Positions 42,258-57,658 of a stretch of 64,000 bases of DNA are shown here, piece by piece. The notes below the pieces were generated by a model. It worked only from the letters and a program-made list of their open reading frames with translations, had not been told where the DNA came from and did not search any database. Numbering within the stretch: the first letter of the stretch is position 1; each line of letters starts with the position of its first letter. Where the stretch lies: positions 77,325 to 141,324 of the forward strand of contig JACOUC010000035.1 of the NCBI GenBank assembly GCA_016178055.1, read 5' to 3'. The position numbers were made by a program, and so were the translations under genes. Origin of the DNA: Chlamydiota bacterium. GTDB taxonomy: Bacteria > Auribacterota > JACPWU01.

Positions 42258-43841
42258 TTATTTCAAAAGGGTTTCCATACTTTTCAGGAGTCCAATCTTC
42301 GAAATGGCCAGCCCTGTCCCCATGACACCCACCTTTTCAGCCGCCGCAAGATTACCGAGCAGCAAGGAAAGATCGGTAGGAAGGCCTCCTCCAAAGCAGG
42401 CAGACGTAATCCCGAGCAACGTGTCTCCAGCCCCAATACGGTCCACCACTTTATTTGCAAAGGGTGGACAACTTAAGAAACCCTCTTCTTCCCGATAAGC
42501 CAAAGCCCCTTTCACACCTCTGGTCATGACAACGGTTTCACATCCCATCCGGCGATAAAGTTGTTCAACCAGAACTTTTTCATCCTTGGTTCGTGTTCTA
42601 TATTCATGACGCAATTCCCCCTCGTGAATACAAACATAATCTGCTCGGGGATATTTTGAAATGGTGTGATAACCAATGTTAGAAGCATTTACCTGAGTAT
42701 TAACAGCTAAAAATTTTTTCTCCTTCATTAAAAACTCTACAATCTTCTCTGAAATTAAGCCATGCCCATAGTCTGCCACAATGATAAGGTCATGATCTGG
42801 TAAATGCTGCTTCAATTTTGAGAGAAGAACATCTTCTTCATCACTTGTGATCAGTTCATCATTGATTTCATAAACTCCGAAAAGCTTAGACTTCGTATAA
42901 GCATCCACATAACGCGTTTTCACAAGAGTCGGGGAATTGGATTTTGTGATGCAATCTAGATGAACATTGGGTTTCAGATGATTTAAAACAAAATCGTTTC
43001 GATCTCGAGTATTGCCCTCATAACTCGCAATGGTGATTTTCTGGCAAAAATCTGACAGGTGATTCGCGATCGCTAACACGCCCCCTGCATAAGCCTCTGT
43101 TTGAAGTTTTTGCATGACCAGCATCGGTTCTTTTGCAGACTTCCCAATGGCATTACAAAAAACATATTCATCTATAATGGCTTCACCGATTAAAAGAACT
43201 CTAAGACTGGATAATTGGCTCAAATATTCTCTAATGGCCTGGGAAGAATATTTCCCTTTGATCCGATCGAGATACTCCATTTGCTCTCTCGTATAAAGGG
43301 GAAAATGCTGATTTAAAAGAGCTGACGAGCTAAACGTAACATCATTCGTATACCGAATTTCTCCATTCACAAAGCGTACCGACTCCTCTTCGAGGCCAAT
43401 CATCCCCGTCACATCCTTTTGATGATCGCGATAGTCAGGCCCCTTTACATAAATATGAGGCTTCAAACACCGAATCGTTTCCACTGCGGTAGGCCATTCG
43501 TTGATGGCCACGTGATCAACAACATCTAAACTGGCGATCATTTCTGCGCGATGGTCCTGCGTAAAAACCGGGCGCATCGGACCCCTATTCACAAATCGGT
43601 CAGGCGTTAACGTGACCACCAAAATATCTCCCATGGCCTTGGCCTCTTTAAAATATCGCAGATGTCCCACATGTAATAAATCAAAGACTCCATGGCAGTG
43701 AACGATTTTTTTATCTTGCAAACGAAGGGCTTCAAGCTCTTGCGCTAAAACATCAAGGGTTTTAATTTTTCCATCTTTCAGTTGTAACATAAACTTATCC
43801 ACGGAGATGATCTTGAATACAATCTGCAATTTTCGAAACAA
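42258..43841 (-). CDS. Bifunctional sugar nucleotidyltransferase / PfkB-family kinase (HldE/RfaE-like, but with domain order reversed).
   Basis: N-terminal cytidylyltransferase-like HxGH (CHGVFDLLHVGHLRYF) and C-terminal ribokinase-family DRIGAGDTLLG. Confidence 0.8.
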   Translation of the reverse strand: MFRKLQIVFKIISVDKFMLQLKDGKIKTLDVLAQELEALRLQDKKIVHCHGVFDLLHVGHLRYFKEAKAMGDILVVTLTPDRFVNRGPMRPVFTQDHRAEMIASLDVVDHVAINEWPTAVETIRCLKPHIYVKGPDYRDHQKDVTGMIGLEEESVRFVNGEIRYTNDVTFSSSALLNQHFPLYTREQMEYLDRIKGKYSSQAIREYLSQLSSLRVLLIGEAIIDEYVFCNAIGKSAKEPMLVMQKLQTEAYAGGVLAIANHLSDFCQKITIASYEGNTRDRNDFVLNHLKPNVHLDCITKSNSPTLVKTRYVDAYTKSKLFGVYEINDELITSDEEDVLLSKLKQHLPDHDLIIVADYGHGLISEKIVEFLMKEKKFLAVNTQVNASNIGYHTISKYPRADYVCIHEGELRHEYRTRTKDEKVLVEQLYRRMGCETVVMTRGVKGALAYREEEGFLSCPPFANKVVDRIGAGDTLLGITSACFGGGLPTDLSLLLGNLAAAEKVGVMGTGLAISKIGLLKSMETLLK

Positions 43842-44179
43842 TCTTCATGCATTGGATACAAACCCTCTCGTCTGGCTCGAAGTTTGGAAGGACACTGCTG
43901 AGAGGATATTTTGATGGAAGATAAATCGAAATCTAGTAAATCACATTCATCTTCGGAAACAACTATTTCTTTTCCTGCTTTTCTAAGCAACATTATTAAT
44001 TCATGTATGTTATGAGTCTTCTTTAAACCCATCGACAATTCTATACACAACGCCTTGAGATATTTTTCTGAAGATTGTTGTAAGTTTTGAAGACAGGGGT
44101 TGTAAAGATGGCTTTTAAGCAATATCTTTGCTGCCTCAAGATTCTCTTCAGCATATTTGGAGCCAATCATGAGTTTCAT
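43778..44179 (-). CDS. HEPN-domain protein (toxin-like partner of the upstream nucleotidyltransferase).
   Basis: 133-aa helical protein with a KKTHNIHEL R/K-x4-6-H-like motif, overlapping the MNT gene by 4 nt. Confidence 0.55.
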   Translation of the reverse strand: MKLMIGSKYAEENLEAAKILLKSHLYNPCLQNLQQSSEKYLKALCIELSMGLKKTHNIHELIMLLRKAGKEIVVSEDECDLLDFDLSSIKISSQQCPSKLRARREGLYPMHEDCFENCRLYSRSSPWISLCYN

Positions 44180-44481
44180 CGTTCATAGACAATCTCCCCC
44201 CTATTTATTTCCGATAAAAAGAAATCATTTTGTACATGGGGTCTTACCGGGATGATGTCTACAGCGATTTTAAGAAGCACAGGACGTATTTGCTTTCTAT
44301 ATTTTAAAGCTAGTTGTAGATATGATTTGTTGCTGCTTTGAAATATTGCTACATCCATGTCATGCGGATTTTCTGATTTTAAAAATGAACCAAATATAAC
44401 AATACGCTGAATCTCTTTGTCGGATGAAAGACAGGAAACAAGTTCTTTCGTCAATTCTTTTTTTAAAGGGGCCGTAAACAT
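44176..44481 (-). CDS. Minimal nucleotidyltransferase (MNT) domain protein.
   Basis: IVIFGSFLKSENPHDMDVAIF (GS...D.D). Confidence 0.7.
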   Translation of the reverse strand: MFTAPLKKELTKELVSCLSSDKEIQRIVIFGSFLKSENPHDMDVAIFQSSNKSYLQLALKYRKQIRPVLLKIAVDIIPVRPHVQNDFFLSEINRGEIVYER

Positions 44482-44543
44482 ATTTTTCTAATCCACGTTT
44501 GCCAAAAATTACTCCATTCTCCTAAAACAAACTTCCTAATCTG

Positions 44544-45580
44544 TTAACCCAGATGCTTAAACCAATCTTTCGTCGCAACTTCAATAGAATCTTTATCCCA
44601 GAGCGGGGCATCCCGCCACGCGTCAATGTGATCCAGCATGATGCGAACACCCTTTTGAAAGGAAACTTTGGGTTGCCAGTGTAAAATCCGCTTTATTTTA
44701 TTGATATCCGCAAAGGTACAATTGGGTTCTCCAGGTCGTTTGGGAATATGAATCACATCCCCGCCCAATAATTCTACCAACTCGTTCACACGATAAGTAT
44801 TCCCAGACCCCACATTAAAAATCTCGCCTGACACATTTGATTCGGCTGCCCGAAGAAGTGCATCCGCTACATCCGTGACAAAAGTAAAATCTCTGGTTTG
44901 ATTACCATCTCCCACAACGGTGAAGGGTTTCCCCGCTAATTTCTGGGCCAGAAAAACACCAAAAACCGCCCCATAAGTTCCTGTTGTCCTAGACCGAGGA
45001 CCATACACATTAAAAAATCGAAGAGAAACGGCAGGCATCTTGTAAGTCTTCTCCCAGTGAAGCACATATTGTTCACCCAAATATTTGGTTAAAGCATAAG
45101 GGTACATCGGTCGAATCGGCGCCGTTTCTGGCGTAGGATATTGATCGGGAATTCCATAACAAGAAGAAGAAGCTACGTAGATAAAGCGTTTGACACCTGA
45201 CAAGCGTGCTGCCTCTAAAACGGAGACTGTTCCATCGACATTTGATCGATGATATTTGAGAGGTTCTTGAATTGAAGGGACAATATCAGCCAAGGCAGCT
45301 AAATGAAAAACCCAGTCTATGTTTTGAAATAAAGGCCTTATGTCAATCACATTTTCGACACCCATTTTATAAATCTTTAGCCCGCATTTCTCATCAGATT
45401 TCGTCGCGAGAGCGCCGAGTCCGCTTTGGATGCGAGGAAGACGACCGAGGCCATGCGAGGCATACTTTACAGTATGTTGAGCGTGGCCGACCGAGTCTGA
45501 CGAAGCAGACGAGGCGGAAGCAGACGTTCGACCAGATGACTTCCGATAAAACCAGCTCCTCCTGTAACCAAGCAACGCAT
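44544..45580 (-). pseudogene. NAD-dependent epimerase/dehydratase gene disrupted by a truncated copy of the MITE-like element.
   Basis: ATG at 45580 gives MRCLVTGGAGFIGSHLVERLL, then runs into the element and hits TAA. The rest of the protein (KIYKMGVENVIDIRPLF...HLAA...YxxxK...) is in a different frame, and about 35 residues of the Rossmann region are replaced. Confidence 0.6.
45378..45520. mobile_element. Truncated second copy of the MITE-like element (left terminal inverted repeat present, right one absent).
   Basis: tagcccgcatttctcatcagatttcgtcgcgagagcgccgagtccgctttggatgcgaggaagacgaccgaggccatgcgaggcatacttt... is about 90% identical to 6680..6820. Confidence 0.55.
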
Positions 45581-45581
45581 C

Positions 45582-46940
45582 TTAATAAACTCCCTCAACA
45601 GCTGTTCTCTCACCGAGAAAATCTGTACTCCAAGCTAGACGAGGTCGAACAGTACCACACCATCTCCCATAATATTCTTTCCTCATTTCACCTGTATCGT
45701 GAACATTAAATGACAGAACATAATCTTGAAGAATTTGTGTATCCGAAATCCCTTTACCAATAATGGCCGCAATACTATAGAGTCCTTCATTTAAAAAATT
45801 ACCGGGTATGATACATACAGTCTGAAACAGACCCACCGGATAAGGTTGTCCGCTCCATGGGTCTTCGGTCAATGAAATGGATCTATGATTACTAGAAGAA
45901 AGAACGTAAGTTCCGACCGGATCTCGTAGCCAAATTGCTGCATACAATTTTGTTTGCGATTTCAAATTCCAATAGGTAATCTCAATTCGAATTTCCTTCG
46001 ATATATCTACATCTGCCGTAGGTCCTTCCACCCCATCCTGAAAAATTCGTACTGAATGAAGACGAACAAGGTCATTCCCGGGAGCATTCGCAACATCTGG
46101 CCAAACCATCTCTCCTCCTAAAGAGCGAGCCACGGCCAGATACTCCTGAACAACTTCAGCGGCAGATCCATTTTTAACCACTTCTCCTTCTTTTAAGAGA
46201 AGAGCTCTCGGGCACAAATTCATAATGCTCGGCATATTGTGAGATACAATCACAACCGTGCGCCCCTCTTTCGCAACATCCCCCATTTTTCCCAAACACT
46301 TCTTCTGAAATTCGGCGTCGCCAACAGCAAGAACCTCATCCACCAAAAGCACCTCAGGCTCCAGATGTGCCGCAACAGCAAACGCTAACCGCACATACAT
46401 TCCGCTTGAATAGCGTTTGACAGGCGTATCGATAAACTTCTCCACTTCAGCAAAAGCAACAATTTCATCAAATTTTCTTCGAATTTCGATTCGTTTCATC
46501 CCCATGATCGCGCCATTGAGAAAAATATTTTCTCGCCCCGTAAGCTCTGGATGGAAGCCCGTCCCCACTTCCAAGAGGCTTCGAACACGACCGTGAATTT
46601 CCGCCCTGCCCTCTGTGGGCTCTGTAATGCGGGAAAGAATTTTGAGGAGCGTACTTTTCCCGGCGCCATTGCGACCAATGACACCAACGACCTCGCCTTG
46701 CTTGATTTCAAAAGAGACATCTTTCAACGCCCAAATTTCATTATCGTTCAAAGGTTCAAAGGTTGAAGAGTTCAAAGATTTTCCAAAGTTCTGTAATCTT
46801 CTGATCTTCGAGTTGGCGAAACGAAAAGGGGCTGTAGCAAGCTGCGTTAAACGATCGCGAAAACTATAGTAACACTCCCGCTCCCCAATTTTGTAGAGCT
46901 TCCCTACATTTTCAACCCGAATGGCGATGTTGTCAGACAT
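45582..46940 (-). CDS. wzt: O-antigen/polysaccharide ABC exporter ATP-binding protein (Wzt-like, with a C-terminal glycan-binding extension).
   Basis: Walker A GRNGAGKST, signature SGM, Walker B LLVDEVLAVGD, and a ~200-aa C-terminal beta-rich domain. Confidence 0.85.
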   Translation of the reverse strand: MSDNIAIRVENVGKLYKIGERECYYSFRDRLTQLATAPFRFANSKIRRLQNFGKSLNSSTFEPLNDNEIWALKDVSFEIKQGEVVGVIGRNGAGKSTLLKILSRITEPTEGRAEIHGRVRSLLEVGTGFHPELTGRENIFLNGAIMGMKRIEIRRKFDEIVAFAEVEKFIDTPVKRYSSGMYVRLAFAVAAHLEPEVLLVDEVLAVGDAEFQKKCLGKMGDVAKEGRTVVIVSHNMPSIMNLCPRALLLKEGEVVKNGSAAEVVQEYLAVARSLGGEMVWPDVANAPGNDLVRLHSVRIFQDGVEGPTADVDISKEIRIEITYWNLKSQTKLYAAIWLRDPVGTYVLSSSNHRSISLTEDPWSGQPYPVGLFQTVCIIPGNFLNEGLYSIAAIIGKGISDTQILQDYVLSFNVHDTGEMRKEYYGRWCGTVRPRLAWSTDFLGERTAVEGVY

Positions 46941-46970: not shown

Positions 46971-47171
46971 TCACTTCGAAACTAACTCTCGAATCGTTTT
47001 AGCCTTGATTCTGCCCAATCTGGGTATTTGCATTAACTCTTCCTCTGTTGTAAGAGCAATGTCATATTTCTTCGTCAGAATATCCCCTATGCCAGCATCG
47101 TTCTCTCGAAAATCCATTCTGATATTCAACGGCAAATACCCCATGAGAGTATGAATTCTTATCGTATTCAT
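46971..47171 (-). CDS. Small helix-hairpin-helix-like protein (hypothetical).
   Basis: ELMQIPRLGRIKAKTIRE HhH-like motif. Overlaps another small ORF (47062..47340), so the boundaries are uncertain. Confidence 0.3.
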   Translation of the reverse strand: MNTIRIHTLMGYLPLNIRMDFRENDAGIGDILTKKYDIALTTEEELMQIPRLGRIKAKTIRELVSK

Positions 47172-47299
47172 TTGTTAATTGTGCTTGCTCTAGCCACATA
47201 TCCCAATAGGCAAAGAGCTCTTCCTCCGATAAATTGCGCAAATCAAGATCTTCTTCACTTAAGAATTCGTCTTTTATTTTTTCCATCATCAAATCCTCC

Positions 47300-48082
47300 T
47301 CAAACTGAAAACGGCAGCACCCCAGATGCCCGAGTTGCAATTAGATGATGCGCTTCAAGAAGAGGATATCCTCGCACCTCTTTCTCCACTTGAATCCACA
47401 TCTTTGACCATTCCTCAGCCGCTTTCATGTAGGCCTCTAGTCGCGCTTCATTTGCATGAATAAGATGTCGTTTCTCCTCATCAAGTGCTTGTTCAAGAGC
47501 TAACCTGCCTTGCGAAATTTTACCCAGGAGAGGGCGTTCGATTACAAGCTCTAACAAAATTTCAGGATGTTTTGCTGCAAGCATCATAATATCTCTTGCA
47601 CTCCTTGAGTAAAGCATTTGATCCTTTGCACTGGAGAGCATCCGAGCCAGTTCCCCAATCACAGCATAATCCTTCTCCCGATTCGTCTCTTTTATTTCTA
47701 TCAAGGTCTTAATATCCACAAAAGGAATATCCTTTCCTTCTTGTTCTACCCATAGTCTATCCAAAGCAACTTGGGGTATTCTCGGGGGACGCGTAACAAA
47801 ATCCGTCCTTACTCGTAAATTGTTATAGCCAAATTCCAGATGAGAACTCCAACCACCCGATAGCCATCGAACATCCAAGGGTGCTCCAAATCGGTATTGT
47901 GCCCCATACTGGGACAAAACTTGCAAAACATGCCCCAGGGTCTCAAGTTCTTCTTTGAGTATCCAATCACCATCCTTACTCATCACAGCAAGATGGTGTA
48001 ACACGACGGCCTGACCCGAGGAAAGAACTGCCCGCAGTTTTCCTTCATTAAATCGTTCCGTCAATTCAACATAGATATTCAT
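47300..48082 (-). CDS. Nucleotidyltransferase-like hypothetical protein (paralog B, probably a degenerate active site).
   Basis: LSSGQAVVLHHLAVMSKDGDWIL and IPFVDIKTLIEIKETNREKDYAV align with 35808..36620. Confidence 0.5.
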   Translation of the reverse strand: MNIYVELTERFNEGKLRAVLSSGQAVVLHHLAVMSKDGDWILKEELETLGHVLQVLSQYGAQYRFGAPLDVRWLSGGWSSHLEFGYNNLRVRTDFVTRPPRIPQVALDRLWVEQEGKDIPFVDIKTLIEIKETNREKDYAVIGELARMLSSAKDQMLYSRSARDIMMLAAKHPEILLELVIERPLLGKISQGRLALEQALDEEKRHLIHANEARLEAYMKAAEEWSKMWIQVEKEVRGYPLLEAHHLIATRASGVLPFSV

Positions 48083-48110
48083 TTACACCCCATCCACAAA
48101 AAATCGGTCC
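48083..48110. repeat. Degenerate copy 4 of the wzm 3'-end motif (TTACACCCCATCCACAAAAAATCGGTCC).
   Basis: Aligns with 50005..50036. Confidence 0.5.
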
Positions 48111-48116
48111 ATCTTT

Positions 48117-48539
48117 TCAAACTTCCAAGAACACCGTCTTAATCCCCAATGCATTTGCGGATTTTGAAAAGGCCCGGTCTGCGGTCAAGGGGGTTAAATC
48201 TTCTGACACGGCAACGGCCAAATGCAGCGCATCGAAACTTCTCAGAGGCGTGCTAAACTCTCCAAGCCAATCCCTGGCCAGCCGATAATGGTGAGTCTCA
48301 ATGGCAACCTTCAAATAAAAACTTCCCTCAGCATGAGAAAGATATCTTGCAAGAACTCGCCTGCCATCTGTGGACTGCATTTGTCCTTCACGAATCTTTC
48401 TGGACACCGCTGAAAATAATTCTACCTCCGTCAAAGGGCTGATGACAGATTGTCCCCTCATGAGATAATGTTCCACTTTATCGCTCAAAGCTTCAGGGCA
48501 ATAGTAGGCGACCAAAACGCTCGTATCGATATAAAACAT
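48117..48539 (-). CDS. vapC: PIN-domain ribonuclease toxin (VapC-like).
   Basis: MFYIDTSVLVAY and the DALHLAVA acidic residues. Confidence 0.8.
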   Translation of the reverse strand: MFYIDTSVLVAYYCPEALSDKVEHYLMRGQSVISPLTEVELFSAVSRKIREGQMQSTDGRRVLARYLSHAEGSFYLKVAIETHHYRLARDWLGEFSTPLRSFDALHLAVAVSEDLTPLTADRAFSKSANALGIKTVFLEV

Positions 48540-48790
48540 TAACAGCGTTCCTCACCTCTGGCTCGAATCACAAGAGAACTTAAGGATTCACCCTTCATGC
48601 GAATCGTCGAGCGAAACGCCTTTAGACTTGGCAGATGCCGAACTCCTCTTTGAGGAGGAATGAGACGAGCCACCTCCTTACCATGACGAAGAATACTCAC
48701 CTCATCCCCTTCCTGAACCCGGTTTAGCAAGGAAGCAAACTGATTCCTCGCCTCTTTAACATTGATATTCACGATTGTCCTCCTCTCCAA
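48539..48790 (-). CDS. Type II antitoxin (Phd/YefM- or VapB-like).
   Basis: 83-aa protein with a 1-nt overlap to the PIN gene. N-terminal KEARNQFASLL...ARLIP. Confidence 0.65.
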   Translation of the reverse strand: MERRTIVNINVKEARNQFASLLNRVQEGDEVSILRHGKEVARLIPPQRGVRHLPSLKAFRSTIRMKGESLSSLVIRARGEERC

Positions 48791-48854: not shown

Positions 48855-48886
48855 TTACACTACATCCGCAAAAAAACGCTCCGTTC
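48855..48886. repeat. Copy 3 of the wzm 3'-end motif (TTACACTACATCCGCAAAAAAACGCTCCGTTCC).
   Basis: Aligns with 50005..50036. Confidence 0.55.
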
Positions 48887-48916
48887 CTTTCTGATATTCA
48901 AAATGTGGTACCTCCC

Positions 48917-49279
48917 CTACACCGCGAGTGTCGTCGTTGCAACAAATCGATGCGCAATATTATCTACCATGACCCCAAAACCTTCTAACGTACGCACTCC
49001 AAGAAGATGCATATCCCCCTTTTCAGCAAAGACAACTTCGTCAATGGTTTCAAAGCCCTCAACACGCAAAACCGCATAGCCCACTTCTCTTTCGACAAGT
49101 TGCTTGGTTGCCGTTTGAAAACTTCGTTTTCGAAGAGGTAAAACCCCTATTCCCATCAGGACCTCTGCCGGTAACCAGGTCAGCTCTGAGCCTGTATCTA
49201 CGAGCACCTCAAGAGGCAAGGTGCTCTTTTTCAAATCAGATGGATGAAGCGCAATCACATTGACTTTAAATATACTCAT
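48917..49279 (-). CDS. Retropepsin-like (clan AA) aspartic protease domain protein, second copy.
   Basis: VDTGSELTWLP D-T-G-S motif in a 120-aa protein. Confidence 0.55.
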   Translation of the reverse strand: MSIFKVNVIALHPSDLKKSTLPLEVLVDTGSELTWLPAEVLMGIGVLPLRKRSFQTATKQLVEREVGYAVLRVEGFETIDEVVFAEKGDMHLLGVRTLEGFGVMVDNIAHRFVATTTLAV

Positions 49280-49361: not shown

Positions 49362-49388
49362 TTACACCACATCCGCAAAAAATAGTTC
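49362..49388. repeat. Copy 2 of the wzm 3'-end motif (TTACACCACATCCGCAAAAAATAGTTC).
   Basis: Aligns with 50005..50036. Confidence 0.55.
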
Positions 49389-49411
49389 TTTTCTTCTAAA
49401 GTAAGACATAT

Positions 49412-49651
49412 TTATCTTTGCACCTTGTCATGAAGAAACTCAGGAGCCAGATCCAAACCATTTTCCCAAACGATGGTATCCATTTCTACTTTAAACTTCT
49501 TAAACCTCTTTTCATCTTTTAACTCCTTGACGATCGACCTATGATCATGATGAACCATCTCATGCAAATCCACAATCCCCTCGATTTTATCATTAAAAAA
49601 AACCCTTATTTTAAAATTCTCTACATATTCTGCCTTGACAACCCAATACAT
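49412..49651 (-). CDS. DUF2442-like small protein.
   Basis: 79-aa protein ending in ...WENGLDLAPEFL, typical of DUF2442. Confidence 0.55.
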   Translation of the reverse strand: MYWVVKAEYVENFKIRVFFNDKIEGIVDLHEMVHHDHRSIVKELKDEKRFKKFKVEMDTIVWENGLDLAPEFLHDKVQR

Positions 49652-49786
49652 TTTTATGCCCTCCTAAACCAATTGTATTGAACATGAAAATGGGGAGGAG
49701 AATGATCATTGAAGTACATACAAATAACCATCCCAAGAAACCTGCTTATTTCTGGCATCTCATACCCTCTTCTATAATTTTATTTT

Positions 49787-50004: not shown

Positions 50005-50036
50005 TTACACCACATCCGCAAAAAAGCGCTCCGTCC
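50005..50036. repeat. Master copy of the motif TTACACCACATCCGCAAAAAAGCGCTCCGTCC, which is the last 9 codons plus stop of wzm.
   Basis: Encodes RTERFFADVV* of the Wzm permease. Confidence 0.6.
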
Positions 50037-50859
50037 TACGAAAATAAAAAAGTCCGCCCACAAAAATAATAACGGCCACAGCAACAGAAATTCCTAAAGA
50101 GCCCCAATGAATGGGTTGATGTGCGAGGAAACAGGCCCGATGGGCCTCGATTAAACCACTCATGGGATTGAGCATCAAAAGCCAGCGATATTTTTCTGGC
50201 ACCATTGAAGCGGGATAAATGACCGGCGTTGCGAAGAGCATCAACTGAATAAAAAAGGGAAGCGCATATTGAATGTCCCGATATTTCACATTAAGCGCGG
50301 AAAGCCAAAGCCCCCACCCTGTCGCAGCGATCATCGAGAAGAAAACAATCGCGGGGAGCATGAGAAAAGACACACTGGGAGGAAAGCCGTAGTAAAACAT
50401 CATGCCCAGGAGAATAACCACCGCAATGGCATAGTCCATCAATCCCGAAAGAGTGGCTGAAAGAGGGATCACAAGTCGTGGGAAATACACCTTGGTCAAG
50501 AGATTTGAACTCCCCACGAGACTCGCCCCTGAGTGAGAGAGGGCTCCTGAAAAATAAGTCCAAAGAAGAAGCCCTGAATAAGAAAAAATAGGATAAGGAA
50601 CGCCATCCGAGGGAAGGCGGGCAATTTTTCCAAAGAAAATGGTGAATACGACCATGCTAAAGAAAGGTTGGATAATCGCCCAAAGAGCCCCCAAAACCGT
50701 TTGCTTATACCTGACCTTGATATCCCGCCAGGTCAGAAAATAGAGAAGCTCCCTAAAATCCCACAAGGCCTTCCAATCAATGGGAACCCATCCCTTGGAA
50801 GAACGAATGATGATTTTGGGAATAGAAGAAACCGATGAAGCTGATATTTCCTGAGCCAT
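50005..50859 (-). CDS. wzm: ABC-2 type polysaccharide exporter permease (Wzm-like).
   Basis: About 6 predicted TM helices and ABC-2 family features in a 284-aa protein. Confidence 0.85.
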   Translation of the reverse strand: MAQEISASSVSSIPKIIIRSSKGWVPIDWKALWDFRELLYFLTWRDIKVRYKQTVLGALWAIIQPFFSMVVFTIFFGKIARLPSDGVPYPIFSYSGLLLWTYFSGALSHSGASLVGSSNLLTKVYFPRLVIPLSATLSGLMDYAIAVVILLGMMFYYGFPPSVSFLMLPAIVFFSMIAATGWGLWLSALNVKYRDIQYALPFFIQLMLFATPVIYPASMVPEKYRWLLMLNPMSGLIEAHRACFLAHQPIHWGSLGISVAVAVIIFVGGLFYFRRTERFFADVV

Positions 50860-50890: not shown

Positions 50891-53296
50891 CTATTTCTTG
50901 AGCGCCTCTGCCAGAACATTCCAAACGTGGTTCAATTTGTTCAAAACTTCCTCATTAGGAAGCGGAATTTTTAAAATAGGCCGCCCGGTGTTCTGATCCT
51001 TTTCAACAAAAGATGAAAAAGAAGTTGATCCCGAAGAAGATTTTGAAATGACGTCTCTCAATTTTTCGAGCAGTGTAACACCCGCCGTCATCAGTTCATG
51101 CATGGGTTGAAGGGGCGCCTCAGCTCCCTCGGATTCTTGTTCCTCTCTTTCAAACTCTGAACCGGTGTCTTGCGTGACCTCTTTAGGCTCAAGCTTGGGG
51201 GCGACCCCAGAAGAAGACTTTGCCACAAGCTCCACCGTCTTCATAAAGCGCTTAAACCTGTCTTCTCCCATAAAGACCTCGCTTTGACCCCCATCCAAAA
51301 CCCCTTCGAAAAGGGATCTCTTAAATTTGAGAAGTTTCAGCAACTCCTCTTCAATGGTCCCTGAAGAGATAAAGTGAACCACATGAACAGGTTTCTTTTG
51401 CCCCAGCCGATGAACCCTCGCGATACGCTGCTCCAAAACAGCCGGGTTCCAGGGACAATCCAAATTGATGACCATGGAGGCACATTGTAGATTGAGCCCC
51501 ACACCCCCTGCGTCTGTGGAGAGAAACACTCTTGCCTTAGGATCGTGATGAAACCGGTGCAAGAGATCCTTGCGCTGCCGACTCGGCACCCCGCCATGCA
51601 AAGATTCAAATCCAACTCCAATCTCTTCGAGTCGTTCCGCTACCAAACGCGTCATCCTTTCCCACTGACTGAAGATCACGACCTTTTCTTCCTCTCGCTC
51701 AAATACCTCTTTTAGAAATGTCATCATCTCATCAATTTTAGGCCCTTTGCGAGTCTTCTCATCCAAAATAAACGTGTTATTACTCACCATGCGCATGGAA
51801 TTGAGGCAAATCATCAAGATCTGCCGATCCTTTTCAGACAAAAATTTAAACCGCCGCCATTTGTTGACCAAACGACAAACGGTCTCGTAATTTTCCTGAT
51901 GAATTTTCCATTGTTCTTCTGTGACCGGAACAAAAAAATGCTTCTCGATTCGGGGCGGCAACTGCTCAAGCACCTCTTTTTTGTGACGACGGATGAGAAT
52001 AGAAGAGAGGCTCGAGCCAATTTCATGCAAGGACCGGTAGCCCACCACCTTTCCATTTTCATCCAAAACTTGATGCTTCTCCAAAAATCGAAAGAGCGGC
52101 CCCAATTTAAAACGATCCACAAATTCCACAATCGAGTGAAGTTCTTCAAGACGGTTCTCCAGAGGCGTTCCCGTAAGAACAAGCGCATAAGGAGATGCGA
52201 TTCTCTTAATATTTCGAGCCGTTCTGGTTTTCCAATTTTTAATGCGCTGGGCCTCATCCAAAATCACCAAATCCGGGGAAAATTTTTGAATAACCTCTAA
52301 ATCATTTTGAACCGCATGATAGGTCGCGATCTTAAAAAATTCAGGCCCCAAATATTGCTCTCTTCTCTTAAGAAAAGATCCCTCAATGGCGCATGCGGAC
52401 CGCGTTGTAAACTTTTCTATCTCCGAGAGCCATTGATACTTTAAAGACGTTGGGCAAATGACAAGAACCTTCTCAATCCCAAATTCTTTCGCCATCAACT
52501 CGGCTGCCCCCATCGCTTGAATCGTCTTCCCTAACCCCATGTCATCCGCGATCAGGGCACGGCCTGCCTTTGCCGCAAAGAGAATGCCTTCCTTCTGATA
52601 GGGATAAAGCGAGGTCTTAAGAAGCGCATCCAAACGAGGGTCATGAACCCCTTGTGAATACCGCTCCTCTATCAAACGCCGTCTGCGACGATCCTCCCTC
52701 ATCTCAACAATAAATTGAAACGCATCAGAGTAACAGCGGAATTGCGGATCGAGTCTTAGTACCGCCTCCAGGAATTTTTCGAAGTGATCGTAGGCCTGGG
52801 GGAGAAGGACATGATTCTCATCAAAATATCCTGAGGCGAGCTTCTTCAAAGAATCGATCTGGCGAAGTCCTATCCTCAAGACAACTTTCCTTTCCATCCC
52901 ATACCTCAAAGAGATAGAAGAATAAGACGGCGTAAAACCCTGCTTAAAAATGGCAGAGGCCCCGCGCTTTCTTTTGAGCTGATGAAGCGTGTACTCAATA
53001 TGCTTACAGGTGCCCAACGTATTGATTTTAAAATCGGGGCAGGAACAATAATTAAGACCGATCTTTTCGCTTCGAATCGCGACCTTGTAAACTTTTTGAT
53101 TTTGAGGATTCGTCACCTCAAAATCAGAAAAGACAGGATGCCCATTGAGATTCTTAACCTTGAAATTCTGATCCAACGCATACTGCCGCCGCAAGGCCTT
53201 CTGCCAATCCTCATAAGAGAGATTGGCCGGCTTAAAATAATAGGGGACTCTTTCTGATGACGTGATACGAGATTTCTTAGATTTTTTAGCGATCAT
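50891..53296 (-). CDS. SNF2-family helicase with an N-terminal SWIM zinc finger.
   Basis: CSCPDF...CKH SWIM, DDMGLGKTIQ, DEAQRIKN and a helicase-C region with HRLGQKKPV. Confidence 0.85.
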   Translation of the reverse strand: MIAKKSKKSRITSSERVPYYFKPANLSYEDWQKALRRQYALDQNFKVKNLNGHPVFSDFEVTNPQNQKVYKVAIRSEKIGLNYCSCPDFKINTLGTCKHIEYTLHQLKRKRGASAIFKQGFTPSYSSISLRYGMERKVVLRIGLRQIDSLKKLASGYFDENHVLLPQAYDHFEKFLEAVLRLDPQFRCYSDAFQFIVEMREDRRRRRLIEERYSQGVHDPRLDALLKTSLYPYQKEGILFAAKAGRALIADDMGLGKTIQAMGAAELMAKEFGIEKVLVICPTSLKYQWLSEIEKFTTRSACAIEGSFLKRREQYLGPEFFKIATYHAVQNDLEVIQKFSPDLVILDEAQRIKNWKTRTARNIKRIASPYALVLTGTPLENRLEELHSIVEFVDRFKLGPLFRFLEKHQVLDENGKVVGYRSLHEIGSSLSSILIRRHKKEVLEQLPPRIEKHFFVPVTEEQWKIHQENYETVCRLVNKWRRFKFLSEKDRQILMICLNSMRMVSNNTFILDEKTRKGPKIDEMMTFLKEVFEREEEKVVIFSQWERMTRLVAERLEEIGVGFESLHGGVPSRQRKDLLHRFHHDPKARVFLSTDAGGVGLNLQCASMVINLDCPWNPAVLEQRIARVHRLGQKKPVHVVHFISSGTIEEELLKLLKFKRSLFEGVLDGGQSEVFMGEDRFKRFMKTVELVAKSSSGVAPKLEPKEVTQDTGSEFEREEQESEGAEAPLQPMHELMTAGVTLLEKLRDVISKSSSGSTSFSSFVEKDQNTGRPILKIPLPNEEVLNKLNHVWNVLAEALKK

Positions 53297-53348: not shown

Positions 53349-53939
53349 TTAAACACCCAACCCCGCTTCGCAAAATGCCTTTTCAAGCAAATCATCTACC
53401 TTAAGTTTTTTTGCCCAATCTCTAAGATAAGGGACCTGAAGTTCTTTACCTTGCACCTTCATCACACCGAGAACATCCGACCACTGACGATCTGAAATTC
53501 TACCCGACATGTTATACCATTCTAGCTTATTAAGAATAACATCCTCAGCGGAGGCAAAATAGCACTCTAACCCGCCAGATTCCTGTCCCAAAACATCTTT
53601 TTCTTTTCTTCGAAAAGCCTCATAATCGTATTCACGGTCCTTTAAAATAAAAATATCTATCTTCATCATTGTTTGCAAATGTATCAGGTTAAATGAAGAC
53701 CTGTTTTGAATAGCCTCGACCATGGATTCTTCCGAAATATAGTATTGATCTGATAAGCGCTTAATTAAAGGTTGAATCTGTGCCTTGCAAATGTTAGCTA
53801 CTAGATCAATATCTAGGGTCGTACGTGGCACACCACAAACAGAACTAGCCACTGAACCCCCTATTTGATAAGAAACATCCAACGCCTCAAAAGCAGTGAT
53901 CACGTTTCGAAGCGCCAAAAGAATATCCGAATTATCCAT
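53349..53939 (-). CDS. Nucleotidyltransferase-fold protein (paralog C).
   Basis: QIGGSVASSVCGVPRTTLDIDLV matches the minimal NTase motif. Confidence 0.6.
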   Translation of the reverse strand: MDNSDILLALRNVITAFEALDVSYQIGGSVASSVCGVPRTTLDIDLVANICKAQIQPLIKRLSDQYYISEESMVEAIQNRSSFNLIHLQTMMKIDIFILKDREYDYEAFRRKEKDVLGQESGGLECYFASAEDVILNKLEWYNMSGRISDRQWSDVLGVMKVQGKELQVPYLRDWAKKLKVDDLLEKAFCEAGLGV

Positions 53940-54186
53940 GTTTGGCTATTTGCTGATATCGCTTCACACGTTCGGATAATTCGGGGCCATAATTCAACGA
54001 CAGAAAAAGAAGATTCCTTTCCTCCGATGCCATCTCGGGATTCCGTCTGGCGATCGCTCTTCTGGAAAGTTGATTTATGAAATGAGTCAAAGAACACATG
54101 ATTTCAAAACGACGAGGCCTTCCAGCCTCCCGCAAAAGCTTGATCTGCACCCTCTCTGCGTCAGGACTCGTATCGGTAAATTTCAA
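53932..54186 (-). CDS. Small hypothetical protein overlapping the NTase start by 8 nt (possible cognate partner).
   Basis: 84-aa ORF with no motif. Confidence 0.35.
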   Translation of the reverse strand: MKFTDTSPDAERVQIKLLREAGRPRRFEIMCSLTHFINQLSRRAIARRNPEMASEERNLLFLSLNYGPELSERVKRYQQIAKHG

Positions 54187-54211: not shown

Positions 54212-54865
54212 TCAAAATTCTCTCCCCCCTTTCTCACTCAAAAGCACCGTTTCCCGATCGGATGAATATTCAGCTTTTCCAATGATAAGATCGACAACAG
54301 CCAAAAGCCAAAGCTGATGAATTGTTTCGACAATATTATAGGCCTTACTCCCAACCCATAAATTGATATCCCCCAACTGCCTTAAGGGATTATCAGGCTC
54401 AAATCCTGAAAGCGTTATAATTTTTCCACATTGCTTTTGACGAGCCGCTTGACAACCATTTAAAATATTCTTAGATCGTCCGCTGGAAGAAATCACAATT
54501 AAAGTATCGCCAGGTTCGCCATAAAAATAGACCGCCTTTTCCACCCAGCGTTCATAGCCGTAATCATTTGAGAAGCAAGTAATGAGTCCCGCCTCATTAA
54601 AATTGATACACCGTACACCTGCACTTTTCGTGAGATCAACGCTCAAATGCCCTGCAATTCCGGCGCTTCCGCCATTTCCCGCGACCATCACCTTCTTCCC
54701 AGCCCGCTGAGTCTCTTCCAAAACTTCTTTTATCGAAACAAGAGTATCTAAAACCTCAAACCCTGGGACCAAGGAGGCAGCGGCCATCTCAAAATATTTT
54801 TCTAAGAAGATGCGAGGTTCACCTGGAGTGAACACCCTTTCTTTTTTTTCGGACACTGGACTCAC
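54212..54865 (-). CDS. gmhA: SIS-domain sedoheptulose-7-phosphate isomerase (GmhA-like).
   Basis: VMVAGNGGSAGIAGHLSVDL and IVISSSGRSKNIL. Confidence 0.8.
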   Translation of the reverse strand: MSPVSEKKERVFTPGEPRIFLEKYFEMAAASLVPGFEVLDTLVSIKEVLEETQRAGKKVMVAGNGGSAGIAGHLSVDLTKSAGVRCINFNEAGLITCFSNDYGYERWVEKAVYFYGEPGDTLIVISSSGRSKNILNGCQAARQKQCGKIITLSGFEPDNPLRQLGDINLWVGSKAYNIVETIHQLWLLAVVDLIIGKAEYSSDRETVLLSEKGGREF

Positions 54866-55317
54866 TTCCTTCTTTTAACCTTCTTAGCAAGAACTTTTTC
54901 TGAAACGCAATAATGCTTCAAGAGAGTCTTAGTAAAATCTTCCAAATCCTTCAAATGGTTCTGAAGAATTTTTTTTAATATGTCAACATTCAACTCCTGA
55001 TATTGATGAACAGCAATATTGCGAAATCCAACCATCGCTTGAAGATGCTTCGATAAAGAAGCATCGATTATTTTACCCTCGGCAAGAAATTTAAACTGAT
55101 CTTTAAGGCTGGTTGGCATCCCGAGTTTTTCTTCCGAGACAACATGGGCCGCCAAATCCATGGCGGCTTGAATGGCCCTTTGCAAATTCAAAACGAAAGC
55201 GTCCTGAATCATCATGTCATCCAATTTAGAAGCCTTTAATCCTGTCATCTCGACAATACGCTTCAAACAACGATGAACAATGGCCGATTTTTCTAAAATG
55301 ATGTCTGCGTCAATCAT
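54862..55317 (-). CDS. HepT-like HEPN toxin (DUF86).
   Basis: RNIAVHQY R-x4-HxY motif. Confidence 0.75.
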   Translation of the reverse strand: MIDADIILEKSAIVHRCLKRIVEMTGLKASKLDDMMIQDAFVLNLQRAIQAAMDLAAHVVSEEKLGMPTSLKDQFKFLAEGKIIDASLSKHLQAMVGFRNIAVHQYQELNVDILKKILQNHLKDLEDFTKTLLKHYCVSEKVLAKKVKRRK

Positions 55318-55789
55318 AAATGCTCCATTTCACCAACGCCTTTTCAACAGGGAGGCGAACTTGTTTTAAATCAAAATACTCATTCAAAGCCCTGATGAAA
55401 AATTCCTGAGCGATCCGCGGCTTCTTGACCATTAAACACTTTCCGTATTTAATGACCTGATGCTTCAAAATGGGTGAAACCTCATCCAAATTAACCAAGT
55501 CCACATCTCGATTAAACTTTTCTGAAAGCTCCATCTTCATTTGAACGAGCTCTCTATACGATGGATCCTTTCCCCTCTCGTACAAAAGGCCCATATCAAT
55601 ATCACTCCAACGATTCTGCTGACTTTTAGCAAAAGAACCATAGAGATAGACGGCCACAAGATGCGTACGCGGACGCCTTTTGAAATAAACTGAAACCTCC
55701 TTTTCAATCTTTTCGGAATTCATCACGCCGCCGCCTCTTGCCGGGGATATCTCCAATAAAGCCCATCGGCAATTCCTTTCGAAAGCCAT
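55310..55789 (-). CDS. MntA-like nucleotidyltransferase antitoxin.
   Basis: VYLYGSFAKSQQNRWSDIDMGLL. Confidence 0.75.
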   Translation of the reverse strand: MAFERNCRWALLEISPARGGGVMNSEKIEKEVSVYFKRRPRTHLVAVYLYGSFAKSQQNRWSDIDMGLLYERGKDPSYRELVQMKMELSEKFNRDVDLVNLDEVSPILKHQVIKYGKCLMVKKPRIAQEFFIRALNEYFDLKQVRLPVEKALVKWSIYD

Positions 55790-56964
55790 TGGGCAAAAGG
55801 AAGCGCCGAGGTCATTCCGGGAGAGACCACATTCAAGAGATGAATGGAACGGCGAGTCGTTTCAACTACCAAATCATCTTGAAATTGGCCGTCCGATCGA
55901 ATGAGCTGGGCCCGAATTCCAACTCTTTTGGCTAAAGTTAAATCTTCTAATCGAAGTCCATCCACTAGTCGGCTTGCCTCTTTTAAAAAATGTTTTTTGC
56001 TGCACGAATTTTTTAATTCACTCCAAGCGACCTCCCTTAAGAGGCGATTTGTTCGAAGGGCCTTCCAAAGTCCGCGATGAAAAATCATTTGAGAAAAATC
56101 TTTCAAATTAAAACTCCATTTACTGTAGGCCTCTCTTCCAAAGGCTGGAACGGCATTGGGCCCAATGAGAATCGAACCTGCAATAGTTTTAGTGAGATGA
56201 ACTCCCAAAAAAGGAAATTCAGGATTGGGAACGGGATAAATCATGGAATTGATAATGGAGACGCTTTTTCCTCCCACTACAAAGTACTCCCCTCGAAAAG
56301 GATTAATCATATATTCCCGACCCACCTTCATTAAGTGGGCCAAGCGATCGGCATGAAGGCCCGCACAATTAATCAACAATTGAGCCTGATACGTCCATCG
56401 ATTTGTTGAAACCTTAACCTCGTCTTTTCTTTCCTTAATGTGCATCACTTCTTCCCCAAATCCAAAACCAACCCCCAACCGCTCGGCATCGTCACGCAAG
56501 GCTTGGGCAAATTTTACTGAATCGACAATGGCGCCCGTAGGGGAAAAAAGGGCCGCAAGACCCTTGACATTGGGCTCACGACGACGTACTTCTTCGATGG
56601 AGAGGATTTCAATTCCAGGAACCCCATTTTTATCTCCCTTCGCCTTTAATTGATGAAGACTAGGGAGCTCCTCCTCGCGGGTTGCAACCACATAAGTTCC
56701 CACCTCTTCACAAGGAATCTGTCTTTCCTTGCAATAAGCCCGAGTCTGACGATTTCCATCCACACAAAGCTGGGCCTTTAATGTACCGGGCTTTTGATTA
56801 AATCCAGAATGAATGACACCGCTATTGCGCCCGCTGGTATGAAAGGCAACGCCATTTTCTTTTTCCAAGACGAGCACGCGATCAAAACGCCGCCCTAATT
56901 CTTTTGCGAGAGAACACCCCACAATCCCTCCCCCCACAATAAGAATGTCATAGAGACGGTTCAC
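55723..56964 (-). CDS. FAD-dependent L-2-hydroxyglutarate oxidase/dehydrogenase-like (LhgO family).
   Basis: YDILIVGGGIVGCSLA dinucleotide motif and overall LhgO-like length and architecture. Confidence 0.75.
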   Translation of the reverse strand: MNRLYDILIVGGGIVGCSLAKELGRRFDRVLVLEKENGVAFHTSGRNSGVIHSGFNQKPGTLKAQLCVDGNRQTRAYCKERQIPCEEVGTYVVATREEELPSLHQLKAKGDKNGVPGIEILSIEEVRRREPNVKGLAALFSPTGAIVDSVKFAQALRDDAERLGVGFGFGEEVMHIKERKDEVKVSTNRWTYQAQLLINCAGLHADRLAHLMKVGREYMINPFRGEYFVVGGKSVSIINSMIYPVPNPEFPFLGVHLTKTIAGSILIGPNAVPAFGREAYSKWSFNLKDFSQMIFHRGLWKALRTNRLLREVAWSELKNSCSKKHFLKEASRLVDGLRLEDLTLAKRVGIRAQLIRSDGQFQDDLVVETTRRSIHLLNVVSPGMTSALPFAQWLSKGIADGLYWRYPRQEAAA

Positions 56965-57350
56965 AAACGACTCTCTAAAAGATTCAGTAATCTTTTCATC
57001 AAAGGGGCATAAATTTTAACATCTTTATAAATCTCTTCTGCTATATTTTCATCGTAAGTATGTGAAGTTTTATTTCTACTATCTGTCATCTTCAATAAGA
57101 GTTCTGTGTCTTCAGCCGTGGTAAGCCCCGCTGAAAAAACTTCTCTGAAACATGATTTAGGCGAGTTAGTCTCACTCCCTTCTTTCTCTCTGAGATAAGA
57201 CCGCATCAATTTCCAAAACACTTCGAAGGTATACTCAAATCTCTGAATGGTTGCGTCTCTCACAATGACGGAGTAGCGCTCTTTGAGAATCGCTTCTAAA
57301 GTCTTGAACGCTTTTTTAGCACTCTGATACTTTAAATCTAATTCTTCCAT
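56961..57350 (-). CDS. HEPN nucleotidyltransferase substrate-binding protein (HI0074-like).
   Basis: RNKTSHTYDE R-x4-H motif. Confidence 0.7.
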   Translation of the reverse strand: MEELDLKYQSAKKAFKTLEAILKERYSVIVRDATIQRFEYTFEVFWKLMRSYLREKEGSETNSPKSCFREVFSAGLTTAEDTELLLKMTDSRNKTSHTYDENIAEEIYKDVKIYAPLMKRLLNLLESRL

Positions 57351-57658
57351 ATCACGGCATCCTTCATGACTGCTCTCTTAAACCGCGGAGAGGCCTCTTT
57401 CAAATTCACAACATCCACTTTGTAAGGAATCGTTGACTCTTCAATTTTCTCCCTCAGAAGAAAAATCTTTATCTCCTGCTTCCCCTTTGGAATAATCCCA
57501 ATATCCACATCCGAAGTTGCGTGATGTGTTCCTCTTGCTCGTGAGCCATATAGAACAACCTTGGCATCCTCCCCTTTGAAAAAATCAGTGACCATCTCTC
57601 TGAGACGAACCAGATATTTGTCTTCCTTTAAACTCATAGTCTCTCCCTCTGAAGACAC
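57338..57658 (-). CDS. Minimal nucleotidyltransferase (HI0073-like).
   Basis: VVLYGSRARGTHHATSDVDIGII. Confidence 0.75.
   Translation of the reverse strand: MSSEGETMSLKEDKYLVRLREMVTDFFKGEDAKVVLYGSRARGTHHATSDVDIGIIPKGKQEIKIFLLREKIEESTIPYKVDVVNLKEASPRFKRAVMKDAVIWKN

Follow-up and report, generated by a model that had tools for sequence, protein, structure and literature searches.

A 64,000-nucleotide stretch of contig JACOUC010000035.1 from a Chlamydiota bacterium (hereafter the window) contains a long surface-glycan operon, headed by a gene of the UpxY antiterminator family, in which toxin-antitoxin (TA) modules and other accessory genes alternate with sugar genes. We favour, with a probability of about 0.6, the view that selfish TA and defence cassettes accumulated in this operon in a lineage-specific and co-oriented manner and partly decayed, probably through recombination between glycan loci and with transcription by read-through. 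The initial annotation had suggested that the modules stabilise the locus or act as phage-defence genes hitch-hiking on a highly expressed transcript. Hitch-hiking fits best: about 11 separate insertions were counted, all of them co-oriented (chance about 2^-11 were orientation free), several of the modules show decay, and lineages differ in the set that they carry. We regard the locus as an unusually dense and well-documented accretion of selfish genes in an antiterminated operon, a known phenomenon and not a new kind of system.

The window proteins are identical to those of two Logan assemblies and of the metagenome-assembled genome (MAG) GCA_016196915.1, a groundwater genome of the Planctomycetes-Verrucomicrobia-Chlamydiae (PVC) group whose label 'Chlamydiae bacterium' was taken over from NCBI as given. 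Over 64000-48912 and 57790-50558, independent contigs matched the window at 100% identity, and over 49052-39250 at 99.8%; every junction was the same in the independent assemblies (L001-L004), whose contigs jointly span all junctions. Since these contigs match the window, the gene order is no assembly chimera. Most open reading frames (ORFs; 68 of 77) lie on the minus strand, and the GC skew is negative throughout. The gene at the head of the string had been annotated as an UpxY-type antiterminator, and its product exceeded the cut-off of the corresponding NCBIfam model (Table 1) and fell below those of the RfaH, LoaP and NusG models; we assign it to the UpxY family, with antitermination itself a predicted activity. 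Co-directional glycan genes continue for at least 58 kb downstream of it and encode Wzm/Wzt, a GmhA-like SIS protein, an HldE-like protein, NeuB and CMP-sugar synthetases, together with epimerases, short-chain dehydrogenases/reductases, thiamine-pyrophosphate enzymes, radical-SAM proteins, methyltransferases and a GT4-like protein. The operon is predicted to specify a Wzm/Wzt ABC-transporter pathway with heptose and nonulosonic-acid genes. As had been stated, the modules lie inside this tightly packed co-directional string, which starts at the UpxY-family gene. The largest gap anywhere between that gene and the one encoding a transketolase-like E1-beta protein (E1b, 38943-39839) measures 246 nt, with gaps of 121-246 nt at four junctions. 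Accessory genes occupy 7.9 kb of the flagged 13.9 kb (about 57% accessory coding sequence) and backbone genes 5.0 kb. The inserts are concentrated in the promoter-proximal 22 kb or so, the first third of the operon, and ORF and Pfam scans found no TA-sized pair in its last 35 kb.

Four pairs of a HEPN protein and a nucleotidyltransferase (NTase) and one VapBC pair had been listed for the 13.9-kb segment. Pfam found both partners, a minimal nucleotidyltransferase (MNT) and a HEPN protein, at each of 43778-44481, 54862-55789 and 56961-57658, all on the minus strand. There are three such pairs only; a fourth NTase pair (53932-54186 and 53349-53939, here called u84 and u196) has no HEPN partner. 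The signature GS-x10-DxD was present in 3/3 MNTs and R-x4-H-type motifs in two HEPN proteins (RNKTSH in HEPN1 and RNIAVH, visible in the translation, in HepT2). By model, MNT2 and HepT2 are bona fide type VII MntA/HepT members, predicted to act as antitoxin and RNase toxin. MNT1, with a probable ATG at 57637, scored 56.9 bits on the MntA model, slightly under the cut-off of 60; its partner HEPN1 passed TIGR01987 (92.2 bits vs 55.8) and reached only 24.6 bits on the HepT model. MNT3 obtained 20.9 bits on the MntA model, and HEPN3, which has no match to the HepT model, is frameshifted at a T-run near 43930. Joining its two frames raised the PF05168 score from 55.4 to 66.8 bits and extended profile coverage from positions 7-81 to 7-114, with the corrected frame stopping at 43795.

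The pair annotated as VapBC at 48117-48790 does consist of a PIN toxin with an upstream antitoxin, the latter being of the Phd/YefM type; no NCBIfam VapC model matched the PIN protein. Two start coordinates were revised as well: MNT2 most likely begins at 55723, not 55789, and Phd at a GTG at 48772, not 48790. Compared with the relative L009, a second Chlamydiae MAG, the ratio of nonsynonymous to synonymous divergence (dN/dS) was 0.073 for PIN and 0.128 for Phd, with dS values of 0.18-0.39 vs 0.32 for wzm. The pair is under purifying selection and, its dS being about that of wzm, has therefore been kept functional and has travelled with wzm.

Within the pairs the antitoxin gene comes first, and the stop/start codon overlaps noted in the initial annotation were confirmed, at 13 nt (MNT1/HEPN1), 8 nt and 4 nt in the MNT/HEPN pairs and 1 nt in Phd-PIN. 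Junctions with the sugar genes are also tight. A flavin adenine dinucleotide (FAD) oxidoreductase gene, DAO, is bordered on both sides by a TA pair: HEPN1 overlaps its start by 4 nt, and the MNT2 ATG shares 1 nt with its stop. HepT2 is separated from the SIS gene by 5 nt, and HEPN3 overlaps the HldE-like gene by 13 nt in the ORF as it stands, which becomes a 4-nt gap once the frameshift is repaired. Collectively, sequence comparison adds these modules to families already known (type VII MntA/HepT, HI0073/74 and Phd-PIN), whereas the MenT1-like u196 resembles a known family of which it is a candidate member.

Comparative genomics, which had been proposed as a check on this locus, indicated that the sugar backbone is conserved among relatives and that the TA content varies. 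The four closest relatives found (L006, L009, L098 and L099) all have the same UpxY-led backbone, with UpxY identities to the window of 65% in L006, 69% in L098 and 61% in L099; UpxY is the first gene of the conserved block, and synteny upstream of it is lost in all four. In three of them (L006, L009 and L099) the gene right after UpxY is a DAO orthologue, and in L098 it is Wzm. The L006 locus reads UpxY-DAO-Epim-HldE-SIS-Epim-...-E1a-E1b, with overlapping junctions and zero inserts. Two of the four relatives have no inserts in the stretch covered, a third has none at the single junction covered, and the fourth, L009, which comes from the same study as the window's MAG, has a different and partly deleted set. 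Its order is UpxY-DAO-(MNT-truncated HEPN)-Wzm-(Phd-PIN)-(DUF4160 stub-DUF2442 fragment)-(AspP fragment)-(u260 fragments-u75-ERCC4-DUF1016)-Wzt-Epim-HldE. The middles of DUF2442, AspP and u260 are missing from L009, and most of ERCC4 and that DUF1016 copy, both of them intact in L009, are missing from the window; at base level the two form a mosaic with reciprocal deletions, differing cassette order and identities of 78%-99%. Since the sugar backbone is conserved and the TA content variable, the insertions are lineage-specific and are turning over.

That such a density of modules is unusual was borne out by a survey of loci around UpxY homologues in species-representative genomes, made with iterated profiles seeded on the window's proteins. 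The best 80 of at least 584 loci (1.23 Mb) held six modules of the same families, five of them after UpxY and on the same strand as it (two from the sister Chlamydiae MAG and one each from Omnitrophota, Calditrichota and Bacteroidales MAGs) and one upstream. Against this background about 0.07 canonical modules would be expected in 13.9 kb and four were observed (post hoc Poisson P about 8e-7). A general TA enrichment downstream of UpxY could not be called from five downstream modules and one upstream, which are too few. When 68 small ORFs downstream of the surveyed UpxY genes were scanned against Pfam without regard to family, the only TA-like families were HepT (3), MNT (3), NTase_sub_bind (1) and DUF6036 (1). 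The Calditrichota locus L056 (10004-16632) encodes, right after UpxY, a 23S-IVP four-helix protein, a DUF6036 NTase with a small partner, DUF5674, an MNT-HepT pair and DUF6922; its contig stops before any sugar genes. Since few of the surveyed loci carry them, TA modules at UpxY loci recur sparsely, and none of these loci is as crowded as the window.

The insertions sit at gene boundaries, always on the operon strand and often sharing start or stop codons with the neighbouring sugar gene. The last 43 nt or so of wzm (...RTERFFADVV*) were found three more times on the gene strand, and the cassettes between wzm and wzt each finish in such a copy. The 21-mer core of this repeat occurs four times on the gene strand, always at cassette ends, vs 0.01 expected. 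In L009 the true wzm end is followed directly by Phd-PIN and aligns to 'copy 3 + Phd-PIN' of the window. The DUF1016b gene is bracketed by 26682-26921 and 28034-28249, which are 81-88% identical duplicates of a methyltransferase 5' end and its upstream spacer, and the DUF1016a block by 35597-35754 and 38281-38438, which are dehydratase C-terminal fragments 77% identical to each other. Because some cassettes carry fragments of neighbouring genes, homologous or illegitimate recombination is pointed to, and diverged duplicates of flanking genes are what would be expected if cassettes bring pieces of a donor locus with them (homology-anchored illegitimate recombination).

No integrase, recombinase or transposase domain was found in any sizeable scanned ORF of the window; the three ABC-efflux genes at 58829-62132, outside the domain scans, were identified from the MAG annotation only. 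An integron was rejected, with no IntI/integrase among the scanned ORFs and no attC-like structure: the sequence repeated at the cassette borders directly copies the 3' coding end of wzm and is not an attC-type hairpin. The wzm-end repeat (GCGGATGTGG) was also rejected as an ops-like recruitment signal, since the UpxY leader contains neither a copy of it nor an ops-like motif; two ops-like matches elsewhere were both poor. A scan of a metagenome collection for TTTTTTGYGGATGKRGTGTAA gave three matches, 0/3 related to this locus, an exact look-up of Wzm for other cassette arrangements returned only the same MAG contig, and no Rfam family matched in the window.

We therefore hypothesise the following course, in which each step remains conditional. 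Recombination with other glycan loci that had diverged would have brought the cassettes in, with conserved sugar-gene ends as homology anchors and duplicated end fragments left at the cassette borders as a consequence. The cassettes would be expressed by read-through from the operon promoter, and the UpxY antiterminator would make the insertions non-polar and therefore tolerated. Intact cassettes would persist via addiction, perhaps with an abortive-infection benefit, and others would decay. Because all insertions are co-oriented and start and stop codons are shared, read-through is the simplest expression model. A single transcript is suggested by this geometry and by the lack of any enrichment of promoter-like sites (17 vs 28.8 +/- 6.1 expected from shuffled sequence) or terminator-like sites (18 vs 18.0). 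The region could instead comprise several operons, with each TA pair autoregulated from its own promoter and co-orientation reflecting the avoidance of head-on conflicts. Autoregulated promoters are usual in classical type II TA pairs, the gene strand has weak promoter-like matches ahead of MNT3 (44505-44477) and DUF4160 (49952-49925), and the four junctions with wider gaps mentioned above would offer space. However, promoter-like sites stayed below the shuffled count and terminator-like sites equalled it, and several TA starts overlap the preceding sugar-gene stops and several TA stops the next starts, which leaves no intergenic space; we consider separate promoters possible and rather doubtful.

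Signs of decay were found in HEPN3 (frameshifted), DUF4160 (cut to 34 aa) and ERCC4 (reduced to remnants), and because several toxins are decaying, a general selected role of the modules in stabilisation or defence is argued against. The purifying selection on Phd-PIN counts on the other side. It would suit a selected phage-defence island, in which abortive-infection toxins and nucleases are co-expressed with a surface glycan that serves as phage receptor. The MNTs match the PADLOC candidate PDC-S09 and DUF1016 matches PDC-S02, the SNF2 core of an accessory helicase resembles the ZorD, DpdE and DrmD helicases, and MNT-HEPN pairs, a DUF6036 NTase and other small modules recur after UpxY in Omnitrophota L033, Calditrichota L056 and Bacteroidales L091, these being the only TA-like Pfam families among the 68 small downstream ORFs. 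Yet the PADLOC families are only candidates and the SNF2 scores lie far under the equivalog cut-offs, the three toxin-side genes just named are dead, close relatives go without these modules, and their presence at about 4 of 66 UpxY loci is close to the rate expected for TA-rich genomes. A defence island thus appears unlikely. We find it improbable that the TA pairs are addiction modules which stabilise a costly, fast-evolving operon against deletion or replacement. Being spread over the first 22 kb, they would cause any large deletion to take out an antitoxin gene, and Phd-PIN has co-diverged with wzm at similar dS, but adjoining sugar genes are decaying too (Epim1 is disrupted, E1b is missing 210 nt that the MAG contig has, and a dehydratase is cut short), not one TA pair occurs in the 35 kb at the downstream end of the operon, and cassettes have been deleted in both the window and the L009 lineage. 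That the interleaving is an artefact of metagenome assembly, for instance a chimeric join of TA-rich and glycan contigs, is scarcely credible: the sequence does come from a MAG, with a break in the NCBI assembly at 48912-49052 beside a repeat copy and with indels of 15 nt in Epim1 and 210 nt in E1b between assemblies, but every junction is the same in the NCBI MAG contigs and in two Logan assemblies made from different runs, and a second species, L009, has homologous cassettes in the same wzm-wzt interval.

Several points weigh against the accretion and decay of selfish cassettes as we describe it. The TA pairs may have internal promoters of their own inside the upstream coding sequence, and, the sequence being from a MAG, assembly errors or variation in the population could account for the frameshifts and indels. 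The comparison covers four close relatives only, two of which (2/4) have contigs of about 2 kb, and the density background consists of other UpxY loci only. Since the cassettes resemble the backbone in composition (GC, P 0.09; GC at third codon positions, GC3, P 0.70), composition lends no support to a foreign origin. The putative recombination route is read from repeat footprints, and a site-specific mechanism may be encoded elsewhere in the genome.

Table 1. Features of the glycan operon, with window coordinates, strand and the evidence for each assignment.
Feature	Coordinates	Strand	Evidence
UpxY-family NusG paralog	57829..58461	-	NCBIfam NF033644 144.1 bits vs cut-off 100; Pfam NusG
MNT1, minimal nucleotidyltransferase	57338..57658	-	Polbeta 56 bits, NTP_transf_2 50.5 bits; motif GSRARGTHHATSDVD
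HEPN1, HI0074-type NTase substrate-binding/HEPN protein	56961..57350	-	PF08780 (NTase_sub_bind) 110.8 bits
DAO, FAD oxidoreductase (L-2-hydroxyglutarate-oxidase-like), backbone	55723..56964	-	NF008726 419.6 bits vs 299
MNT2, predicted type VII MntA-type antitoxin	55310..55723	-	NF047752 94.8 bits vs 60; motif GSFAKSQQNRWSDID
HepT2, predicted type VII HepT-type RNase toxin	54862..55317	-	NF047751 136.8 bits vs 60; PF01934 105.6 bits
SIS-domain (GmhA-like) sugar isomerase, backbone	54212..54865	-	PF13580; 62% identity to L006 orthologue
u84, small partner of DUF6036-like NTase	53932..54186	-	44% identity to N-terminal 83 aa of fused 282-aa homologue P0153
u196, DUF6036-like/MenT1-like nucleotidyltransferase, candidate toxin	53349..53939	-	invariant GGS...DID; fold match
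SNF2/SWIM helicase, accessory	50891..53296	-	SNF2-rel_dom, Helicase_C, weak SWIM
Wzm ABC-2 permease, backbone	50005..50859	-	PF01061; last ~43 nt = repeated cassette-boundary sequence
133-nt palindromic MITE-like element in wzm-DUF4160 spacer	49787..49919	-	minimum free energy -62.2 vs -30.3 +/- 3.1 shuffled, z -10.35
DUF4160 fragment (34 aa), truncated toxin-side gene	49654..49758	-	PF13711 in MAG annotation; 100% identical fragment in L009
DUF2442 protein, weakly DhiA-antitoxin-like	49412..49651	-	PF10387 33.1 bits
wzm 3'-end repeat copy 2, after DUF2442, then Phd gene fragment	49362..49404	-	exact 21-mer TTTTTTGCGGATGTGGTGTAA
AspP_a, retropepsin-like clan AA aspartic protease	48917..49279	-	TIGR03698 37 bits, sub-threshold
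wzm 3'-end repeat copy 3, after AspP_a, directly upstream of Phd-PIN	48855..48897	-	21-mer with 1 mismatch
Phd/YefM-type antitoxin	48539..48790	-	PF02604 39.6 bits; TIGR01552 33 bits vs 20.8
PIN-domain (VapC-like) toxin, predicted	48117..48539	-	PF01850 52.9 bits; acidic D5, E40, D103, D121
wzm 3'-end repeat copy 4, overlaps PIN stop	48083..48125	-	21-mer with 2 mismatches; ends exactly at u260 ATG
u260, large unannotated family	47300..48082	-	NTase-like signature SSG-x13-DGD
u75, conserved small partner of u260	47062..47289	-	similar gene beside u260 homologues in L092, L093
ERCC4/HhH nuclease remnants	46971..47171	-	blastn mosaic vs L009 15116-15215, 15684-15761; intact gene in L009
Wzt ABC ATPase, backbone	45582..46940	-	PF00005; 78% identity to L009
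Epim1, epimerase/dehydratase, backbone	44544..45580	-	Pfam match begins at profile position 43
MNT3, minimal nucleotidyltransferase	44176..44481	-	Polbeta 40.4 bits; motif GSFLKSENPHDMD
HEPN3 (PF05168/COG2250 type), frameshifted	43778..44179	-	PF05168
HldE-like bifunctional sugar kinase/nucleotidyltransferase, backbone	42258..43790	-	CTP_transf_like + PfkB
AspP_b, second retropepsin-like clan AA protease	41799..42179	-	TIGR03698 71.7 bits vs 57.35
DUF1016/YhcG PD-(D/E)xK nuclease a	37074..38108	-	Pfam; PADLOC candidate PDC-S02
DUF1016/YhcG nuclease b	26924..27979	-	Pfam

The u84 and u196 genes overlap by 8 nt, and the pair gave no family hit. For u196 there was no above-threshold match in Pfam, NCBIfam or PADLOC, the DUF6036 match being sub-threshold; its family is conserved, about 195 aa long, with an invariant GGS...DxD motif, and some homologues carry PF19502 (DUF6036). 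An AlphaFold (AF2) model of u196 (confidence score pLDDT 90.6) gave MenT1 Rv0078A as the best fold match in the PDB (E 1.2e-6, template-modelling (TM) score 0.62), and the family profile searched against the PDB also returned MenT1, weakly (E 0.006). Some u196 homologues (P0153, P0221, P0222 and P0236) are fusions of 282-293 aa that include the small upstream partner. If that partner is a classical antitoxin, such fusions are unexpected.

The u260 family has 2661 homologues at about 60% identity, none with a Pfam domain, spanning Planctomycetota, Kiritimatiellae, Verrucomicrobiae, Aminicenantes and other phyla; no homologue was found on plasmids or phages. Its AF2 model (pLDDT 92.9) is weakly NTase-like, with a fold match to JHP933 (TM about 0.4), and a search of the PDB returned no sequence-level relative, nor did profiles connect u260 with the u196 family. 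In L092 (4001-5016) and L093 (4001-4995) a gene of 65-73 aa overlaps the u260 homologue, and the core DEFLSEEDLDL...YSHGVF is conserved. The u260+u75 module (about 265 aa plus about 65-75 aa) sits co-directionally inside unrelated operons elsewhere and had no Pfam, NCBIfam, PADLOC, PDB, plasmid or phage match; we consider it a candidate uncharacterised TA or defence family.

Among the other accessory genes, the SNF2 helicase gave sub-threshold matches to ZorD, DpdE and DrmD in its core only and is absent in L006 and L009. An intact DhiT/DhiA pair was ruled out: DUF4160 is a stub of 34 aa, and DUF2442 scored 27.4 bits against the DhiA (NF048016) cut-off of 200. AspP_a also stayed below the Pfam cut-offs for gag-asp_proteas (26.4 bits, cut-off 28.2) and Asp_protease_2 (22.8 bits, cut-off 24.3). 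The 133-nt hairpin between wzm and DUF4160 is near-perfect, with 18-nt terminal inverted repeats, has a partial copy at 62733-62777 and is absent from L009; it resembles a miniature inverted-repeat transposable element (MITE) or, alternatively, could be an operon-internal structure for processing or pausing.

Some backbone genes are damaged as well. In Epim1, the N-terminal Rossmann region is broken by a 143-nt repeat element and the N-terminus lies in another frame; a 15-nt indel in this region separates the window from the NCBI MAG contig. The 143-nt element occurs at 45378-45519 and, 95% identical, at 6680-6821, the second copy lying in frame inside a 712-aa GT4-like gene. It recalls palindromic elements that insert into coding sequence, with modest z scores for folding (-2.15 and -0.62). 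E1b is 210 nt (70 codons, in frame) shorter than in the NCBI contig (L004 9789-9998), which reflects either population heterogeneity or an assembly collapse, and one backbone dehydratase is truncated. The HldE-like gene matched the rfaE domain models below their cut-offs. Near the operon end, proteins of 636 aa and 712 aa (93-1196 vs 6257-7546) are diverged paralogues with 69-81% DNA identity in patches, of which only the 712-aa protein had a Pfam match, a weak one to GT4, below the family cut-off.

At the other end, the UpxY leader (58462-58780) forms an extended hairpin of about 200 nt with 27-nt arms at 58477-58503 and 58650-58676 (z -6.25). A promoter-like site (58806-58777) precedes it, Rfam gave no match, and the hairpin could have a regulatory role as a leader or be a palindromic element that inserted there. 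An L-2-hydroxyglutarate-oxidase-like gene such as DAO is not what one would expect at the head of a glycan operon. Upstream of the ABC-efflux genes and outside the UpxY block, positions 62214-62531 contain an orphan DUF2281 (antitoxin-like) ORF with no evident partner toxin. Here a genome labelled Chlamydiae has a glycan cluster that depends on Wzm/Wzt and includes heptose and nonulosonic-acid genes; to our knowledge, cultured Chlamydiae make only truncated lipopolysaccharide.

Known type VII HepT/MntA systems include SO_3166/SO_3165 of Shewanella oneidensis and a HEPN/MNT pair of Aphanizomenon. The window pairs resemble them in the upstream MNT gene overlapping the HEPN gene and in the GS-x10-DxD and R-x4-H motifs, with MNT2/HepT2 passing both equivalog cut-offs. 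Unlike these, the window modules are embedded between sugar genes and translationally coupled to them and are known here from sequence alone; MNT1 falls below the cut-off and has an HI0074-type partner, and the third HEPN protein is of the PF05168 type and frameshifted. MNT1 and HEPN1 resemble HI0073/HI0074 of Haemophilus influenzae in that HEPN1 passes TIGR01987 and its gene comes after that of a minimal NTase, overlapping it by 13 nt; the genomic context differs, and the TA function of that family has itself been inferred. The u196 model fits MenT1 best among the comparisons made, which likens the pair to MenAT1 (Rv0078A/Rv0078B; MenT/AbiEii) of Mycobacterium tuberculosis, as do the small overlapping upstream partner and the GGS...DxD motif. 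The u196 identity is however only 16-18%, and fused partner-NTase homologues are unusual for a TA pair. Phd-PIN shares with VapBC systems that have a Phd/YefM antitoxin the four acidic residues of the PIN domain, the upstream antitoxin, the 1-nt overlap and purifying selection, but lacks an NCBIfam VapC match and lies between copies of the wzm 3' end.

Chromosomal integron arrays, for example the Vibrio superintegron, carry TA cassettes. The window is like such an array in its tandem, co-oriented, short and promoter-less-looking cassettes with a repeated boundary sequence at their ends, which lie downstream of one fixed site, would be expressed from an upstream promoter and differ in order between relatives. 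It is unlike one in that no integrase was found in the window and that the boundary repeat is the 3' end of a host gene, not an attC hairpin. Bacteroides has well-known capsular polysaccharide loci with UpxY/UpxZ at their head, and there too an UpxY-family NusG paralog heads a long co-directional polysaccharide operon. Here, in contrast, an MNT gene follows UpxY, and an UpxZ-like gene was not identified, no search with an UpxZ model having been made. In the literature that could be searched we came across no account of TA modules interspersed among the genes of UpxY, O-antigen or capsule operons; a statement that TA systems occur in rfaH neighbourhoods (PMC7593976) comes closest.

The locus flags two widespread, unannotated two-gene candidates for new TA or defence families, u260+u75 and the DUF6036-like u84+u196. 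The practical value of the finding is limited because the organism is uncultured. As a tentative generalisation, antiterminated (UpxY-type) operons might be safe harbours where promoter-less TA and defence cassettes could insert in the direction of transcription without polar damage. The cassettes would spread from lineage to lineage among glycan loci by recombination at conserved sugar-gene ends such as the last codons of wzm and would then form an integron-like array free of an integrase. If our reading is true, it describes a route by which TA and defence genes may accumulate inside, and not beside, a long biosynthetic operon. They would borrow the operon's promoter and antiterminator and move with highly exchangeable surface-glycan genes, which would explain the promoter-less look of such modules. 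Two fast-evolving anti-phage layers, receptor variation and abortive infection, would thereby be linked in one transcript.

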